Both the position numbers and the translations under genes were made by a program. This document shows positions 246-5,980 of a stretch of DNA of 5,980 nt, piece by piece. This stretch comes from a virus. The stretch lies in IMG/VR virus record IMGVR_UViG_3300045988_012479; one strand, written 5' to 3'. Numbering within the stretch: the stretch's first letter is position 1; every line of letters begins with the position of its first letter. The notes under the pieces were generated by a model. That model saw nothing but the letters and a program-made list of their open reading frames with translations, was not told the origin of the DNA and searched no databases.

Positions 246-1265
246 GTGAGTTGCTACAAACCGTTAATACGGCTGTACAACCCTAACGACAAAAACATTA
301 GCGGGAGGGTGTATTCACTCTCCCGCTATTCTCAGTTAGTGGGGAGACAGCTAAAATATGAAGATTTGATGTTTAGAAAAAATGTAATGTTAATACCATG
401 CGGGCAGTGCATCGGATGCAGAATAAGACAAAGAGAGGACTGGACAACACGAATAGAATTAGAAGCACGAGACTATCCAAGAGAAGAAGTATGGTTTATC
501 ACAATGACTTACGACGATGACCACGTACCTGGCATGATAGTAAACACAGGCGAAATCATGAGAAAAGTACAATACATCTGGAAACCGGGAGAGAAGCGCC
601 CAGAAAGCGTCCAAACATTACTATATACTGACGTTCAAAAATTCTTAAAACGTCTCAGAAAGGCTTACAGGGGCAAATTACGCTATTTTGTGGCAGGAGA
701 GTATGGAGAACAAACAGCAAGACCACACTACCACATGATATTGTATGGATGGCAACCAACAGACCTAGAGCACCTATACAAAATACAACACAACGGATAT
801 TTCACAAGTAAATGGCTAGCAGACCTATGGGGCATGGGTCAAATACAAATAGCACAAGCAGTACCAGAAACCTATAGATATGTTGCAGGATACGTTACGA
901 AAAAAATGTACGAGATAGACGGAAAGAAAGCAAATGAATACTACGAACTAGGCCAACAAAAACCGTTCGCATGCATGAGCCTAAAGCCGGGATTGGGAGA
1001 CCACTATTACCAAGAACACAAAGAAGAAATATGGAGACAAGGCTACATCCAATGTACAAACGGAAAACTCGCACAGATTCCACGTTATTATGAAAAGATG
1101 ATGGAAGCTGAAAACCCACAAAGGTTGTGGAGAATTAAGCGAAACAGACAGGCAACAGCCATAGCAGAAAACCGACTAAAGTATGAAAATACAGACTTTG
1201 CAGAGCAATGCAAGACAAAAGAAAGGGTAATCAAGAAGCAAATGAAGAAGAAAGGGACACTCTAA
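246..1265 (+). CDS. Replication initiation protein VP4 (rolling-circle HUH endonuclease, phiX174 gpA-like)
   Basis: 339-aa ORF. It contains motif I WFITMTYDD (uuTuT), the HUH motif RPHYHMILYG, and the active-site motif RYVAGYVTKK, which closely matches phiX174 gpA ARYVAKYVNKK (two catalytic Tyr). The N-terminus MSCYKPL and a CGQCIGC Cys cluster are typical of Microviridae VP4. The GTG start at 246 has the SD GGAGGA at 234-239; if GTG is not used, the alternative start is ATG 364. Confidence 0.92.
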   Translation: MSCYKPLIRLYNPNDKNISGRVYSLSRYSQLVGRQLKYEDLMFRKNVMLIPCGQCIGCRIRQREDWTTRIELEARDYPREEVWFITMTYDDDHVPGMIVNTGEIMRKVQYIWKPGEKRPESVQTLLYTDVQKFLKRLRKAYRGKLRYFVAGEYGEQTARPHYHMILYGWQPTDLEHLYKIQHNGYFTSKWLADLWGMGQIQIAQAVPETYRYVAGYVTKKMYEIDGKKANEYYELGQQKPFACMSLKPGLGDHYYQEHKEEIWRQGYIQCTNGKLAQIPRYYEKMMEAENPQRLWRIKRNRQATAIAENRLKYENTDFAEQCKTKERVIKKQMKKKGTL

Positions 1266-1275
1266 CGGTGTCACC

Positions 1276-1318
1276 TAGCCCAGTACCTATCAAGTAAGTA
1301 CTGGGCTATTTTAGTTTT
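1276..1318 (+). terminator. Rho-independent terminator downstream of the Rep gene
   Basis: An 11-bp perfect inverted repeat, tagcccagtac (1276-1286) paired with gtactgggcta (1298-1308), with an 11-nt loop, is followed directly by ttttagtttt (1309-1318). It lies 11 nt after the VP4 stop. Confidence 0.7.
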
Positions 1319-1489
1319 CAACACTTTCAACACTTTCAACAGGTTTTCAACATAAAAGTGCACAATAAAATCCGTCATAATGACGAACATTCAACAATTC
1401 AACAAGTTATCAACAAAACTTTCAACAACATTTTAAAGCAAAAAAACACAACACAACGTTAAAATTTAAAGATATTCAACATTTCAACA
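1317..1489 (+). repeat. Iteron-like array of direct TTCAACA heptamers (nine perfect copies plus one ATCAACA variant), including a tandem 9-mer cactttcaa x2
   Basis: TTCAACA occurs at 1317, 1326, 1335, 1346, 1390, 1398, 1421, 1475 and 1483; the variant tATCAACA is at 1409. All copies are in the same orientation, within 173 nt of non-coding DNA between the Rep terminator and the promoters. Confidence 0.85.
1373..1385. other. Short palindrome cgtcat-a-atgacg embedded between the iteron clusters
   Basis: A 6-bp inverted repeat with a 1-nt spacer read directly from the sequence; its function is unknown (candidate nick site or protein-binding site). Confidence 0.35.
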
Positions 1490-1559
1490 GAGCCTACTAC
1501 TACTCCTACAACAAGTTATATAATAAAACGGCATAAACGCGCACAGCGCTAAAAAGGAA

Positions 1560-1587
1560 ACCATTTTCGGGAGTTCCCGAAAATGGT
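1560..1587. other. Strong perfect hairpin (13-bp arms accattttcggga / tcccgaaaatggt) in the intergenic region
   Basis: Arms at 1560-1572 and 1575-1587 are exact reverse complements; the realistic stem is 11-12 bp with a 4-6 nt loop. On the minus strand it is followed by tttccttttt; on the plus strand no T-run follows it. GC-rich half-palindromes (cgcgcacagcgct, gagcgctaaagcgc) flank it. Confidence 0.75.
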
Positions 1588-1869: not shown

Positions 1870-1898
1870 TTGAAAAGCCTATTGACAGATGGTATAAT
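1870..1898 (+). promoter_or_regulatory. sigma70-type promoter P2: TTGAAA - 17 nt - TGg TATAAT
   Basis: -35 TTGAAA (1870-1875), a 17-nt spacer, a consensus -10 TATAAT (1893-1898) with TG at 1890-1891, and an AT-rich upstream region. The predicted TSS is near 1905, about 20 nt before the first accessory ORF. Confidence 0.65.
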
Positions 1899-1924: not shown

Positions 1925-2110
1925 ATGAGGCACAGATACGAACTGAGAAAATTGAACGCTAACGATAGCATAACCACAGTATTAAGAATCAACGATGAAC
2001 CAAAAAGCGCAAAACGAATAGCAAAAAAATACGCAAACGAACACAAAGGAATCTATTCACTATACAAAATTGAAGAAGTAGAAATGTACTTCACCGAAAA
2101 AGAGAATTGA
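1925..2110 (+). CDS. Hypothetical small protein (61 aa from ATG 1925; the six-frame track starts it at GTG 1916)
   Basis: First ORF downstream of P2; an AAAGG motif lies 11 nt upstream of ATG 1925. The stop TGA 2108-2110 overlaps TTG 2107 of the next ORF. I recognise no family. Basic, K/E-rich. Confidence 0.5.
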   Translation: MRHRYELRKLNANDSITTVLRINDEPKSAKRIAKKYANEHKGIYSLYKIEEVEMYFTEKEN

Positions 2111-2115
2111 CGAAA

Positions 2116-2508
2116 ATGATTAAATGCTATATCATGAATACAGACGCAAACGAAAAAGTAGGAAAGCACTTTAAAGTGCGAGAATTTGCATGCAAGGACG
2201 GTTCACAAGTAGTTTTTATAGACGACTACCTAGTATCCATTCTAGATATCCTCAGAAACAAAGTCGAAAAGCCGGTATACATAAACAGCGGATACAGAAC
2301 ACCAGAGTGGAACAAAAAATGCAATGGAGCGAAATACAGCTACCATATGCGCGGTATGGCAGCAGATATCCGGGTTGAAGGAATGACCGCAAAACAGGTT
2401 GCCAACAAACTGAATGAAATCATCCCGGACGAATGCGGCATTATCGTATACAAAAGCTGGGTACACTTTGATGTACGAAGCGGCAAAAAATACAGAAAGG
2501 GGGTATAA
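2116..2508 (+). CDS. Zinc D-Ala-D-Ala carboxypeptidase-like peptidase, family M15 (Peptidase_M15_3-like); probable peptidoglycan hydrolase/endolysin
   Basis: The protein contains SGYRTPEWN ... YSYHMRGMAADI (H-x6-D zinc-ligand motif) ... WVHFDVR (third His), which is the M15 pattern seen in small phage cell-wall peptidases. The start is ambiguous: TTG 2107 (overlapping the upstream stop), ATG 2116 (chosen here) or ATG 2134. Confidence 0.88.
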   Translation: MIKCYIMNTDANEKVGKHFKVREFACKDGSQVVFIDDYLVSILDILRNKVEKPVYINSGYRTPEWNKKCNGAKYSYHMRGMAADIRVEGMTAKQVANKLNEIIPDECGIIVYKSWVHFDVRSGKKYRKGV

Positions 2509-2985: not shown

Positions 2986-3225
2986 ATGGAACATCTGTAT
3001 TACGGCATTTGGGACAACGTGGCAAAATGCTACGCATGGGTAGGCGAAAGCAAAAACGACGGGACTTTTGCACGAATGTGCAACACAATGGCAAAGGACA
3101 AAGGAACCTTCATCGGGCAGAGTCCGCAGGACTACACCGGCTTTAAACTGGCAACGTTTGAGGATGAGCTTGGAACGTTCACGAACGACAACGAAAAGGT
3201 GTGGGAGGGCAAGCCGAATGAATAA
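2986..3225 (+). CDS. Hypothetical 79-aa protein with a triplicated GTF motif (DGTFARM / KGTFIGQ / LGTFTND)
   Basis: SD GAGGAG (2971-2976) lies 9 nt upstream of ATG 2986. Its stop TAA 3223-3225 overlaps the next start (ATGAATAA). No recognisable family. Confidence 0.55.
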   Translation: MEHLYYGIWDNVAKCYAWVGESKNDGTFARMCNTMAKDKGTFIGQSPQDYTGFKLATFEDELGTFTNDNEKVWEGKPNE

Positions 3226-3616
3226 GCGATACGAGGAAGGGCGAGAGCCCTTCTTTTCAAATTCAGGCGAAAAACTGCGAAGACAGTACATCTGGACAAA
3301 GGACGAAAAAGGGAAAGAAGTGTTGCAGGAAACCGAGCCAATTGACATCCAGCAGGAAATCGAAAGCTATGCGGACGAATGTGACATCAAAAACATTGTT
3401 CGGAAAGCGAGTTTCGACCCGGAATTCCTGAAAAGCTTGTCACAAGGTGCTATGGAAGGCGTAGAAATAGACGTGACCGAATGGCCGCAAAACATCCACG
3501 AGTATCACCAGATGATCGCGACCGCACAAGTAAACGCAATGAAGCTCAAAGAGCTGGAAGAACAAAGCAAAGCACAGAAAGAAGAATCAGCAGAAAGGAG
3601 TGAAACGGCAGAATGA
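3218..3616 (+). CDS. Acidic 132-aa protein, putative internal scaffolding protein (VP3-like), translationally coupled to VP1
   Basis: SD GGGAGGG (3203-3209) lies 8 nt upstream of ATG 3218. Highly acidic (E/D-rich), about 130 aa, and located directly upstream of the major capsid gene with an ATGA stop/start overlap at 3613-3616, as expected for a gokushovirus VP3 scaffold. The assignment rests on size, charge and position only; the track's longer start at 3068 overlaps the previous gene. Confidence 0.6.
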   Translation: MNKRYEEGREPFFSNSGEKLRRQYIWTKDEKGKEVLQETEPIDIQQEIESYADECDIKNIVRKASFDPEFLKSLSQGAMEGVEIDVTEWPQNIHEYHQMIATAQVNAMKLKELEEQSKAQKEESAERSETAE

Positions 3617-5277
3617 ACAGAAACAACGAAAGACACTTTCTGAACGTACCGCAGATGCACACGAGCAGAACGAGATTCAACCGAGACCAGACAATCCTAA
3701 CCACATTCGACAGCGGCAAGCTCATTCCGTTCTTTGTAGACGAAGTGCTGCCGGGCGACACGTTCCAGGTAGACACCAGCGCAATCATCCGCATGACTAC
3801 ACCGAAGTATCCGGTCATGGACGATGCATTCATTGACTTCTACTACTTCTACTGTCCAAACCGAATCCTATGGGACGACTTCAAGAGATTCATGGGAGAA
3901 GCAGACCAAACAGCATGGATGCCAACCAAAACCTACAGCGTGCCGAAAATCAAAATCGAAGCAGGTAAAGCGTCACCAAAAATTCCGGGGCCGAAAGAAA
4001 AAAGCATTCTCGACTACATGGGAGTGCCAACGAAAATCGAAAACGAATTCAAAATAAACGCGCTGCCAGTCCGTGCATATGTCATGATTTGGAATGAATA
4101 TTTCAGAGACCAGAACGTAGAAAATGCAGCAGTACTAAAAACAGACAGCGAAGAAGTCACATACAGCGACAACGAACCAGAAAACGTAGAAAGAACACTT
4201 AGAGAAGCGGTGACGGGTGGTCGCTGTCTTCCCGTAAACCGTTTCCACGACTACTTCTCAAGTTGTTTACCTTATCCGCAGCGCGGACCGGAGGTAACAG
4301 TACCAATGACAGGTAATGCACCAGTATTCGGATACAGCACCATCCAAGACAGCGAAAAATTAACAGATAAAATAATTCTAAACCAACCGTGGCCAACAAA
4401 CAGCACAACGGATTTTTATAACACGGAAAAAGGAGGAAAACTGACAGGAAAAGGCGCACTGAATGGAGGTAGCTACACTGCAGAAGCATTCCTAAAAGCA
4501 GACCTCAGCGCCGTAACCGCAACAACCATCAACGAACTGCGAAACGCAATTGCAGTGCAGCAGTACTACGAAACAATGGCACGAGGCGGAAGCCGATACC
4601 GTGAACAGGTACAGGCACTATGGAATGTAACCATCAGCGACAAAACGGCACAGATTCCGGAATATCTTGGCGGTGGCCGCTATCGCGTCGGAATGAACCA
4701 GATCGTACAGACAAGCGGACAGCAGAGCGAGAACGATACACCTATTGGCGAAACCGGTGCAATGTCAGTAACGCCAATCAACGAAAGTTCCTTCACGAAG
4801 AGCTTTGAAGAACACGGGTTTGTAATTGGTGTGTTGTGCGTGCGCCACAGCAGAACGTACCAGCAGGGACTTGAACGTTTCTGGAGCAGAACCGACAGGC
4901 TGGACTATTATGTACCTCAGTTTGCAAATCTGGGCGAACAGCCTGTAAAGAAAAAAGAAATCATGTTAACCGGCACGAAAACTGATGAAGAAACATTTGG
5001 CTACCAAGAGGCCTGGGCCGATTACAGAATGAAGCCGAACCGAGTGAGCGGCCTCATGAGAAGCAACGCAACAGGCACGTTGGATTTCTGGCACTATGCA
5101 GACAACTACTCAACTACGCCTACACTGTCTCAGGAATGGATGGCAGAAGGCAAAAAAGAAATTGAAAGAACACTCATCGTACAGAATGAAGATCAATTCT
5201 TCGGTGCAATTCGTGTAGCAAACAAGACCACACGTTGCATGCCCTTGTACAGTGTACCGGGCTTGTACAAACTGTAA
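3613..5277 (+). CDS. Major capsid protein VP1 (Microviridae F-like, Gokushovirinae-type)
   Basis: 554 aa. The N-terminal region HFLNVPQMHTSRTRFNRDQTILTTFDSGKLIPFFVDEVLPGDTF ... FYYFYCPNRILWDDFKRFMGE is the characteristic gokushovirus VP1 signature (PGDTF, the FxVPxRxxW..F..F.GE block). The size matches VP1 with its hypervariable insertion loop. SD AAAGGAG at 3593-3599. Confidence 0.96.
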   Translation: MNRNNERHFLNVPQMHTSRTRFNRDQTILTTFDSGKLIPFFVDEVLPGDTFQVDTSAIIRMTTPKYPVMDDAFIDFYYFYCPNRILWDDFKRFMGEADQTAWMPTKTYSVPKIKIEAGKASPKIPGPKEKSILDYMGVPTKIENEFKINALPVRAYVMIWNEYFRDQNVENAAVLKTDSEEVTYSDNEPENVERTLREAVTGGRCLPVNRFHDYFSSCLPYPQRGPEVTVPMTGNAPVFGYSTIQDSEKLTDKIILNQPWPTNSTTDFYNTEKGGKLTGKGALNGGSYTAEAFLKADLSAVTATTINELRNAIAVQQYYETMARGGSRYREQVQALWNVTISDKTAQIPEYLGGGRYRVGMNQIVQTSGQQSENDTPIGETGAMSVTPINESSFTKSFEEHGFVIGVLCVRHSRTYQQGLERFWSRTDRLDYYVPQFANLGEQPVKKKEIMLTGTKTDEETFGYQEAWADYRMKPNRVSGLMRSNATGTLDFWHYADNYSTTPTLSQEWMAEGKKEIERTLIVQNEDQFFGAIRVANKTTRCMPLYSVPGLYKL

Positions 5278-5315: not shown

Positions 5316-5980
5316 ATGAGCGTTTTATCAACAATCGGTGGAATAGCAGCAAAAGGCTTACAGTGGGCAGCGGCAAATCCACAATTAGTCACAGGAGCAA
5401 TGACACTGGCGGGAAAAGGTCTACAAGGACTATACGGACAGCAAAGCCAAAGCCAAAGCCAAGGGTACAACCAAAGCCAAAGCCAAGGAGGAGGACAAAG
5501 CAGCAGCAGCAGCCAAGGTGGAACCAATGACCAATTAATCCAAGACTATCTTAAACAGTTCTACAACTGGCAGAGCGGGCAAAACGAATTCCAGAGCAAA
5601 ACAAACCGACAAAACATGTTAATGCAAATGGGTTACAACACCCTAGGCGCAATCCAACAGGGAATCTATAACCAAATTGAACGCAATGCAGCCATGAACT
5701 ACAACAGCGCAGAAGCTCTGAAAAACAGAGAGTTTCAAGAACGCATGTCAAGCACAGCATACCAAAGAGCAGTTGAGGATATGAAAAAAGCCGGAATAAA
5801 TCCTATCCTAGCATACGCACAAGGTGGAGCGAGCACACCGGGAGGCTCAGGAGCAACCATCACAGGCGCAAGCATGGGACTACCGTCCGCAAGTGCACTA
5901 GGCGTGTCAACAATGTCAGGTAACGTACCAAACAGCTACTACAGCCGGTCAGAAAGTCAAAGCCAATGGTATCAGCTCGC
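5316..5980 (+). CDS. Minor capsid / DNA pilot protein VP2 (N-terminal 221 codons; the ORF runs off the window end and continues at bases 56-245)
   Basis: ATG 5316. It has a glycine-rich, hydrophobic N-terminus, an SQ/G low-complexity linker, and the conserved block FQERMSSTAYQRAVEDMKKAGINPILAYAQGG typical of Microviridae VP2/H-like pilot proteins. It follows VP1 directly, as in gokushoviruses. Confidence 0.88.
   Translation, partial: MSVLSTIGGIAAKGLQWAAANPQLVTGAMTLAGKGLQGLYGQQSQSQSQGYNQSQSQGGGQSSSSSQGGTNDQLIQDYLKQFYNWQSGQNEFQSKTNRQNMLMQMGYNTLGAIQQGIYNQIERNAAMNYNSAEALKNREFQERMSSTAYQRAVEDMKKAGINPILAYAQGGASTPGGSGATITGASMGLPSASALGVSTMSGNVPNSYYSRSESQSQWYQL
5442..5517 (+). repeat. Microsatellite-like tract inside VP2: (CAAAGC)3 ... 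(CAAAGC)2 ... GGAGGAGGA ... (CAG/AGC)5
   Basis: Hexanucleotide and trinucleotide tandem repeats read directly from the sequence; they encode SQSQSQGYNQSQSQGGGQSSSSSQGG. Confidence 0.8.

Follow-up and report, generated by a model that had tools for sequence, protein, structure and literature searches.

Among described systems, the closest to the element considered here is the basal unwinding system (BUS) of bacterial chromosome origins. A BUS comprises a DnaA-box, usually as two tandem copies no more than 3 bp apart, then a GC-rich gap of ~4 bp and three or more DnaA-trios whose central base is A and whose consensus is 3′-GAT-5′, with an AT-rich element behind them (PMC8287927; PMC7561715). 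To be accepted by the published BUS finder, a DnaA-box must lie no further than 16 bp from the trios and differ at no more than two positions from TTATCCACA or from a species-specific box (PMC8287927). In Bacillus subtilis, the complement of the trios reads 5′-CTACTATTACTTCTACTA-3′ and the boxes lie 5′ of it; this same strand is the TnnT element bound by DnaD, a protein tied to primosome assembly at single-strand origins; either strand of the opened BUS has been proposed as a substrate for helicase loading (PMC10201434; bioRxiv preprint). DnaA boxes further upstream are also required in B. subtilis. Here we analyse the IMG/VR virus record IMGVR_UViG_3300045988_012479, a gokushovirus-like microvirus sequence of 5980 nucleotides (nt), referred to below as the window in its full length. 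Downstream of its Rep gene lies an array of TTCAACA heptamers which, together with the ~40 nt that follow it, very probably represents a DnaA-box/BUS-type module.

Scaffolds for which BUS activity has been validated share one layout: TTATCCACA-AATCCACA-GGCC-CTACTATTAC... in B. subtilis (trio part beginning CTACTATTACTT), TTATCCACC-AATCCACA-GCAC-CTACTACTATTA... in Staphylococcus aureus, TTTTCCACA-TTTTCCACA-GCCC-CTACTACTACTG... in Synechococcus elongatus (trio part beginning CTACTACTA) and TTTTCCACA-GAATCAACA-TGCC-CTATTACTT... in Enterococcus faecalis (PMC8287927 supplement). The core of the window (1473-1529) reads TATTCAACA-TTTCAACA-GAGC-CTACTACTACTCCTA, then CAACAAG, then TTATATAATAAAAC; written as a scaffold, it is a duplex TATTCAACATTTCAACAGAGC with the tail CTACTACTACTCCTA. 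It agrees with the validated scaffolds in orientation and strand, in the 8-nt spacing of its boxes, in its gap of 4 bp, in the sequence of its trios and in its AT tail. Its box pair corresponds to DnaA-boxes #6/#7 of B. subtilis, and the trio-proximal box of E. faecalis, GAATCAACA, is of the same TCAACA type. The two heptamers of the pair (starting at 1475 and 1483, 8 nt apart) keep within the gap of ≤3 bp allowed in a BUS, face the trios and lie 5′ of them on the strand written as CTA. The gap is G/C-rich (mean GC 0.55 in the phages, against ~0.30 for the region), the minus strand carries four GAT and one GAG trio, and in the plus strand of the same segment, bases recur with the TnnT period of the element recognised by DnaD. 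An AT-rich stretch (TTATATAATAAAA) follows, and eight further boxes lie upstream, between -177 and -73 from the first trio. A pattern derived from the phages, TTCMACNNTTCMACNNNNNCTACTACTA, has a single match in the window and none in 200 shuffled sequences, even when two mismatches are allowed.

The array itself had been picked out in a first-pass annotation of the window, and its description there holds up. There are nine exact copies of TTCAACA, all on the plus strand and all within 1317-1489, and a tenth copy with one mismatch (ATCAACA, within TTATCAACA at 1407-1415). The 9-nt tandem duplication (TTTCAACAC × 2.9 at 1316-1341) and the palindrome (CGTCATAATGACG at 1373-1385) are present as claimed, as well as an 8-nt tandem (ATTCAACA × 2.1 at 1389-1405). 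Enrichment against shuffled sequence, proposed there as a check, is clear: 1.16 copies are expected (maximum 5), and none of 200 dinucleotide-preserving shuffles reaches nine. The placement between the Rep terminator and the promoters was likewise borne out, with a post-Rep hairpin on one side and σ70-type promoters on the other; the array falls within the lowest-GC part of the window (GC content 0.30). The functional unit extends beyond the end of the array at 1489 to ~1530, taking in the GAGC gap, the CTA triplets and the AT-rich tail (Table 1).

Table 1. Coordinates of the predicted module, its flanks and the neighbouring features in the window.
Feature	Position	Strand	Remarks
HUH Rep/VP4 (PF23343)	246-1265	+	sole initiator-like protein encoded
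Hairpin after the Rep stop codon, then T-run	1276-1308	+	inverted repeat of 14 nt, 93% complementary
Distal predicted DnaA-box cluster I	1315-1352	+	heptamers at 1317, 1326, 1335, 1346; 9-mers in order TTTTCAACA, CTTTCAACA, CTTTCAACA, TTTTCAACA; -177 to -148 from first trio
Central hairpin/palindrome (TC)CGTCAtaaTGACG(AA)	1371-1388		stem conserved in 64 blocks, loop varies
Predicted DnaA-box cluster II	1388-1427	+	boxes at 1390, 1398, 1409, 1421; -104 to -73 from first trio
A/T-rich spacer without boxes, cluster II to box pair	1428-1472		lower conservation
Predicted tandem DnaA-box pair TATTCAACA / (A)TTTCAACA	1473-1489	+	8 nt start to start, toward trios
G/C-rich 4-bp gap GAGC	1490-1493	+	
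Predicted DnaA-trios	1494-1508	-	+ strand CTA CTA CTA CTC CTA; - strand 3′-GAT GAT GAT GAG GAT-5′
CTACAACAAGTTA	1506-1518		near-invariant, phage-specific
Short AT-rich tail TTATATAATAAAAC	~1516-1530		presumed unwinding element; 1516-1528 is TTATATAATAAAA
Fixed right flank AAACGCGCACAGCGC	1535-1549		reverse complement AGCGCTGTGCGCGT (1536-1549)
Perfect hairpin ACCATTTTCGGGA/TCCCGAAAATGGT	1560-1587		13-bp stem, 2-nt loop; scores as terminator on - strand
Strong σ70-type promoters	1655-1683 and 1870-1898		
M15 peptidase	2107-2508		
Chp2-type scaffold protein	3068-3616		
F-type capsid protein	3613-5277		

The same architecture recurs throughout related phages. Almost all of 80 viral contigs with a Rep protein 89-96% identical to that of the window carry the array just downstream of Rep, so that the conservation in homologous phages on which the first-pass annotation had made its proposal depend was found. 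Phage statistics were compiled from at least 167 distinct microvirus contigs, whose Rep proteins share 37-100% identity with that of the window (below 50% in 48 contigs). The trio-proximal box is TTTTCCACA in 61 of these, TTTTCCACT in 28 and ATTTCAACA in 20; the two boxes are 8 nt apart in 126 contigs and 9 nt apart in 24, and the gap before the trios measures 4 nt in 129. CTA accounts for 642 of 694 triplets, the AT content at the tail position averages 0.72, and a median of nine boxes in the same orientation is found within 330 nt upstream. More than 120 viral contigs, every one of them microvirus-sized, contain the trio core CTACTACNNCTACAACAAGTTA. Within the block, conservation is higher in the heptamer columns than elsewhere (0.973 versus 0.892 in 64 distinct orientation-normalised copies; Mann-Whitney p = 3e-8, phylogeny ignored), with values of 0.96-1.00 for the columns of cluster I. 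The mismatched copy TTATCAACA is a regular TTTTCAACA in most relatives.

A BLAST comparison with GenBank phages (45 records) defines what is retained over longer distances. The whole block is covered in 24 records, the 3′ two-thirds only in ~10, and the most distant ones match only positions ~1474-1528 of the window. Five of these core-only genomes carry the boxes TTTTCAAC and TTTTC(A/C)ACA, 4 nt rich in G/C, the run CTA CTA CTA CTn CTA CAA CAA G, and a TTATATA stretch. The central hairpin and the upstream boxes are lost in distant relatives, and the box pair and trios stay. This pattern bears on the idea that the array is a DnaA sink, titrating DnaA off the host origin in the manner of datA, or a DnaA-dependent regulator of the two downstream promoters, in either case without firing as an origin. 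A dense cluster of DnaA boxes in one orientation ~170 nt upstream of strong promoters would suit such a role, and DnaA is also a transcription factor. However, the most widely conserved part is the pair, gap, CTA triplets and AT tail, a geometry specific to unwinding, rather than the distal boxes, and the module shifts in orientation and position relative to both the promoters and Rep, which argues against a promoter operator. We consider a sink or regulator unlikely.

The breadth of this conservation also speaks to whether the module does anything at all. A recombined fragment of a host origin, or a chimera generated during assembly, would resemble host origins as the module does, and one 14-mer in its flank is shared with an origin contig of Oscillospiraceae. 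Against such a non-functional passenger stand the 45 GenBank records, which come from several laboratories, and the metagenomic contigs counted above; moreover, boxes are better conserved than spacers, and the module is kept across lineages whose proteins are only 37-40% identical. A passenger is therefore the least probable of the explanations considered, to a degree that makes it hardly credible.

Resemblance to the DnaA box, which the first-pass annotation had dismissed as weak, turned out to be the key to the array. In relatives, TTCAACA alternates with TTCCACA, and TTTTCCACA, the commonest proximal box, fits the DnaA-box consensus TTWTNCACA exactly and differs by one mismatch from TTATCCACA. 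The 9-mers of the window, TATTCAACA and ATTTCAACA, have three mismatches to TTATCCACA, the Escherichia coli consensus, and one to TTTTCAACA, a box of Oscillospiraceae origins. The same boxes occur in dnaA-dnaN origins of gut Clostridia. The heptamers are thus most likely host DnaA boxes in the dialect TT(T/A)TCAACA of gut Clostridia, especially Oscillospiraceae.

This connection emerged from scanning the pattern TTCMACNNTTCMACNNNNNCTACTACTA over one genome per bacterial species. More than 120 chromosomal matches were obtained, compared with ~1 expected by chance (our own estimate), and 120 were examined. Of these, 114 are at dnaA/dnaN, with 81 between the two genes and 33 within 1.5 kb of either; the fetched locus contained neither gene in six cases, and no match was elsewhere. 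Pfam searches placed DnaA and DnaN open reading frames on the two sides of the site in sampled loci, and microvirus proteins are encoded by none of the 120. A pattern derived from phages therefore doubles as a highly specific finder of bacterial origins. Most of the 120 origins have TTCCAC boxes; 17 are dominated by TTCAAC, all of them Clostridia and mostly Oscillospiraceae, as exemplified by a Clostridial origin that reads GTTTTCAACATTTCAACAGCCCCTACTACTA with 7-10 TTCAAC boxes upstream. Owariibacterium komagatae 13GAM1G is a cultured member of the Oscillospiraceae whose origin is of this TTCAAC type.

Similarity to Clostridial origins extends to the spacing of the upstream boxes. Counted from the first trio, the boxes of the window are at -177, -168, -159, -148, -104, -96, -73, -19 and -11. 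They are colinear with those of the Clostridial oriC loci L239 (-176, -165, -158, -144, -105, -74, -30, -19, -11) and L244 (-176, -165, -158, -144, -84, -19, -11), and with those of L305; cluster I matches the four-box cluster at -176 to -144 in L239 and L244, and cluster II has its counterparts at -105 and -74 in L239 and at -94, -85 and -74 in L305. Like the BUS of bacterial oriC at dnaA-dnaN (B. subtilis incC, Clostridioides difficile oriC2), the module combines a box pair spaced at 8 nt, a 4-bp gap, five or more CTA triplets and an AT stretch with upstream box clusters at matching positions. It differs in residing in a 6-kb single-stranded DNA phage beside an HUH Rep gene, in its short AT element, in the phage sequence CTACAACAAGTTA behind the trios, and in an orientation to neighbouring genes that is not fixed among the phages. 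Since it lies in a microvirus genome and not in a chromosome next to dnaA/dnaN, the term oriC does not apply to it: it is a viral module of BUS type. It probably copies or mimics that half of a bacterial chromosome origin at which unwinding takes place, and the box dialect suggests Clostridia (Oscillospiraceae) as predicted hosts.

Several points weigh against this interpretation. Outside the boxes, the block is not more similar to Clostridial origins than spacer-shuffled controls are, with the exception of L244 (z = 3.7), so that the module may stem either from capture of a host origin or from convergence on DnaA geometry. The boxes of the window, with three mismatches and an A at position 6, exceed the mismatch limit of the BUS finder and would be accepted only against a species-specific box, and the AT-rich tail, at ~13-15 bp, is shorter than in model origins. 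Furthermore, known microviruses replicate by rolling circle initiated by Rep, phiX174 does so without DnaA, and why a phage of this kind should need such a module is not obvious.

An exact copy of the 14-mer AGCGCTGTGCGCGT, the reverse complement of the right flank, is present in 107 of 187 phage loci. Of the 120 bacterial origin loci, only L255, a dnaA-dnaN contig of Oscillospiraceae, contains it (~0.005 chance matches expected); there it lies ~11 nt upstream of the box pair, a placement that matches the majority form of the phages. It is possibly a trace of exchange between phage and origin, or a site for another factor.

A second microvirus lineage employs a different box type. When viral contigs were scanned for the canonical form with two TTCCAC boxes, nine matches were obtained, four of them microviruses (L309, L310, L314 and L316) with Rep ~29% and VP1 ~35% identical to those of the window. 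Downstream of Rep, these have four to five perfect TTATCCACA boxes and then the pair TTTCCACA-TTTCCACA; ATGC separates the pair from five or six CTA triplets, behind which the sequence is AT-rich. Constant architecture with a changed box type fits host-specific DnaA sites and not Rep iterons. The box dialect could accordingly serve as a host signature, with TTCAACA-type boxes indicating Oscillospiraceae or related Clostridia, and TTATCCACA-type boxes indicating other hosts.

Box pairs with CTA trios and upstream TTATCCACA-type boxes were also noticed in larger viral contigs of 9.6-69 kb that are not microviruses (L308:3675-3702, L311:8237-8264, L312:9822-9849 and L313:391-418). These sites adjoin genes of replication type rather than dnaA/dnaN (one for a Prim-Pol primase in L308, one for an HTH_36 protein in L312), and origin mimicry may be wider among phages.

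The first-pass annotation had proposed that the array is a candidate origin or a platform for Rep or a host factor, akin to the Rep-binding arrays of plasmids or of circular Rep-encoding single-stranded (CRESS) DNA viruses. Its origin-like character and the host-factor part stand; the Rep-iteron part does not, since the boxes stay constant as Rep diverges. In origins of the pMV158, circovirus and geminivirus types, iterons lie beside a hairpin that holds the nick site and co-vary with Rep. The resemblance to the window is real in so far as direct repeats flank a conserved hairpin in an intergenic region next to the gene of an HUH Rep. However, Rep identity ranges from 37 to 100% without any matching change in the TTC(A/C)AC boxes, identical boxes with identical spacing are present in bacterial dnaA-dnaN origins, and the lineage with ~29% Rep identity uses consensus TTATCCACA boxes. 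The hairpin has a conserved stem and a variable loop, and distant relatives dispense with it and with the upstream boxes, keeping the pair and trios. Binding of VP4 to the heptamers as iterons is very improbable on these grounds, and the Rep-iteron model was rejected because the boxes do not follow Rep.

Iteron plasmids replicating by the theta mode offer a further comparison. In P1 oriR, pSC101, F, RK2 and R6K, one or a few accessory DnaA boxes supplement the RepA-type iterons of 17-22 bp, and to our knowledge their origins lack a module of box pair and trios. They resemble the window in that a mobile replicon recruits DnaA through boxes near an AT-rich region. They differ in that the repeat unit of the window is only 7-9 bp, no RepA-type initiator is encoded and the entire site is of DnaA type.

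Orientation of the module is variable among the phages. In ~70 of the 80 close relatives the array is reverse-complemented; it runs in the sense of the genes only in the window and six others. Over the 167 contigs, 134 modules are antisense and 33 sense. The inverted unit corresponds to positions ~1314-1525 of the window (its end falling at ~1525-1534), and the flanks up to ~1310 and from 1535 onwards keep their orientation; the post-Rep hairpin, used as left anchor in blastn comparisons, is the fixed left flank and retains its direction in all relatives. Copies of the block in sense orientation are 81-99% identical to that of the window, and antisense copies 73-79%, representing two diverged types. 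The inverted repeat that brackets the unit is weak, with an exact core of 7 bp extending to ~11/14, and joins the flank at 1535-1549 to a GC-rich left element that is present in most relatives and absent from the window. A fast invertible switch is ruled out by the clustering of blocks according to orientation and by the weakness of this repeat, and the difference in orientation suggests an old rearrangement or cassette exchange.

Exchange is also indicated by the distribution of block types. The block of the window is closer to those of KX513876 (L085, KX513876.1, 5379-5580) and MT121961 (81-82%) than to those of close Rep relatives (73-79%), and yet the Rep proteins of these two phages are only ~37% identical to that of the window. 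Because block similarity disagrees with Rep similarity, exchange of the cassette between distant gokushovirus lineages is favoured over flipping in place. In the KX513876-like group, the module lies upstream of Rep, in the VP2-VP4 spacer. Presence in both orientations, upstream or downstream of Rep, fits a cassette that acts on duplex DNA irrespective of direction.

Most relatives contain an extra 90-170 nt between the Rep hairpin and the block (L015:3848-4000, L065:1395-1540, L003:4545-4680), comprising a perfect 13-bp hairpin (AAGGGGTTGACTT/AAGTCAACCCCTT) and a self-folding run of alternating GCGCGCACGCGCGC-type sequence. The window (at 1309-1313) and L001 do without this segment, with 226 nt between the anchors as opposed to 310-400 nt elsewhere.

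Orientation is relevant to a further possibility, namely that the element is a complementary-strand origin for the conversion of single-stranded to double-stranded DNA, at which the CTA/TnnT run would recruit DnaD, or the TAG run DnaA, to assemble a primosome for second-strand synthesis. The binding of DnaD through TnnT to the strand opposite the trios, its connection with the primosome at single-strand origins and the proposed loading of helicase on opened BUS strands are all in its favour. Yet DnaA boxes need duplex DNA, and those of the window all point in one direction and cannot pair with each other; in addition, with 33 sense and 134 antisense modules, one of the two groups would have its signal in the wrong strand, except if the packaged strand flips as well. 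Such an origin appears improbable, slightly more so than the sink or regulator discussed above.

We return to the preferred interpretation of a DnaA/BUS-type module, whose part in phage replication is likely to be that of a DnaA-dependent unwinding element. On the double-stranded replicative form, DnaA would occupy the eight upstream boxes and the proximal pair, and an oligomer of DnaA-ATP would extend from the pair across GAGC onto the five 3′-GAT-5′-type trios of the minus strand. By stretching this strand, the oligomer would melt the duplex into the AT-rich tail, opening positions 1494 to ~1530. We infer that the resulting bubble could then start phage DNA synthesis through loading of the host helicase and primosome, giving DnaA-dependent replication of the replicative form. 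Such loading is conceivable, as the freed plus strand carries the TnnT repeats that are recognised by DnaD of Firmicutes.

Alternatively or in addition, the bubble might expose single-stranded CTACAACAAGTTATATA to VP4. This idea arises since an HUH nuclease needs a single strand, and CTACAACAAGTTA is nearly invariant in the phages yet absent from bacterial origins and from the lineage with TTATCCACA boxes. An exact CTACAACAAGTTA is found in 74 of the 80 loci that Rep homology identified, and each of the five GenBank relatives inspected has it as well; it was not seen behind the trios in the bacterial origins or in the four microviruses of the second lineage. It is a candidate site for a phage protein, possibly for recognition or nicking by VP4, although cleavage by VP4 within the bubble must be regarded as a tentative proposal with less than even prospects.

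The homologous HUH Rep encoded by the window phage invites comparison with the origin in gene A of phiX174 and with nick sites of the pC194 family. The phiX174 origin, of ~30 bp, lies inside the Rep gene, with the cleavage region CAACTTG/ATA and no DnaA boxes. The element of the window, in contrast, is intergenic. On its minus strand, the conserved phage motif is TATATAACTTGTTG, which includes the AACTTG of the phiX174 cleavage region; this is a match of only 6 nt in AT-rich DNA (minus strand of 1509-1520).

A combined scenario, in which the module is the true origin, VP4 cuts CTACAACAAGTTATATA in the DnaA bubble, and sense and antisense phages package opposite strands relative to their genes, is improbable by our estimate. 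If true, it would contradict the rule for Microviridae that the coding strand is the one packaged. As a gauge of the packaged strand, synonymous C>T:G>A changes number 403:297 in antisense and 20:28 in sense phages (Fisher p = 0.035, with only seven non-independent sense genomes). With C and G content taken into account, the antisense ratio comes to ~1, and a stricter version of the comparison kept a single sense genome; we give this asymmetry no weight.

Gokushoviruses are the dominant single-stranded DNA phages of animal guts and their origins are undefined; the module provides a conserved candidate with predictions at the level of single bases. A rolling-circle phage with a near-complete DnaA module would, if true, represent a new form of viral takeover of host initiation and a natural experiment on the minimal sequence that DnaA needs. 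Literature searches, whose coverage was incomplete and included few subscription journals, turned up neither a publication that connects gokushoviruses or Microviridae to DnaA, its boxes or oriC nor a description of DnaA-trios in any phage.

As for the genome setting, open reading frames and Pfam matches in the window identify Rep, an M15 peptidase, a scaffold protein and an F capsid protein, and the array occupies the gap of ~840 nt between the Rep and peptidase genes. An Rfam scan of the window (E ≤ 1) returned nothing relevant. Readings of the region as a dif/XerCD-like site or an IHF site, or of TTGAAA as a -35-like element, were unconvincing when judged by eye only.

Downstream of the module, the perfect 13-bp hairpin has a counterpart with a different stem-tip sequence in L015 and another sequence altogether in L003. 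A 44-nt segment with the promoters is duplicated (1647-1690 and 1862-1905, 215 nt apart, 77% identity); both copies are near-consensus σ70 promoters with a TG-extended -10 element (TTGACA-17-TAAAAT and TTGAAA-17-TATAAT), and the 170 nt between them are relatively GC-rich, with no convincing open reading frame.

Further along, a hexameric tandem repeat, CAAAGC × 7.5 (74% matches), covers positions 5442-5486, followed by AGC × 5 at 5499-5513, probably within a coding region downstream of the capsid gene. The gene-sense strand is richer in A than in T, with an AT skew of +0.2 to +0.6 and third codon positions at 0.35-0.43 A and ~0.15 T. Among polarised synonymous changes, C>A far exceeds G>T (93:16), irrespective of the orientation of the module.

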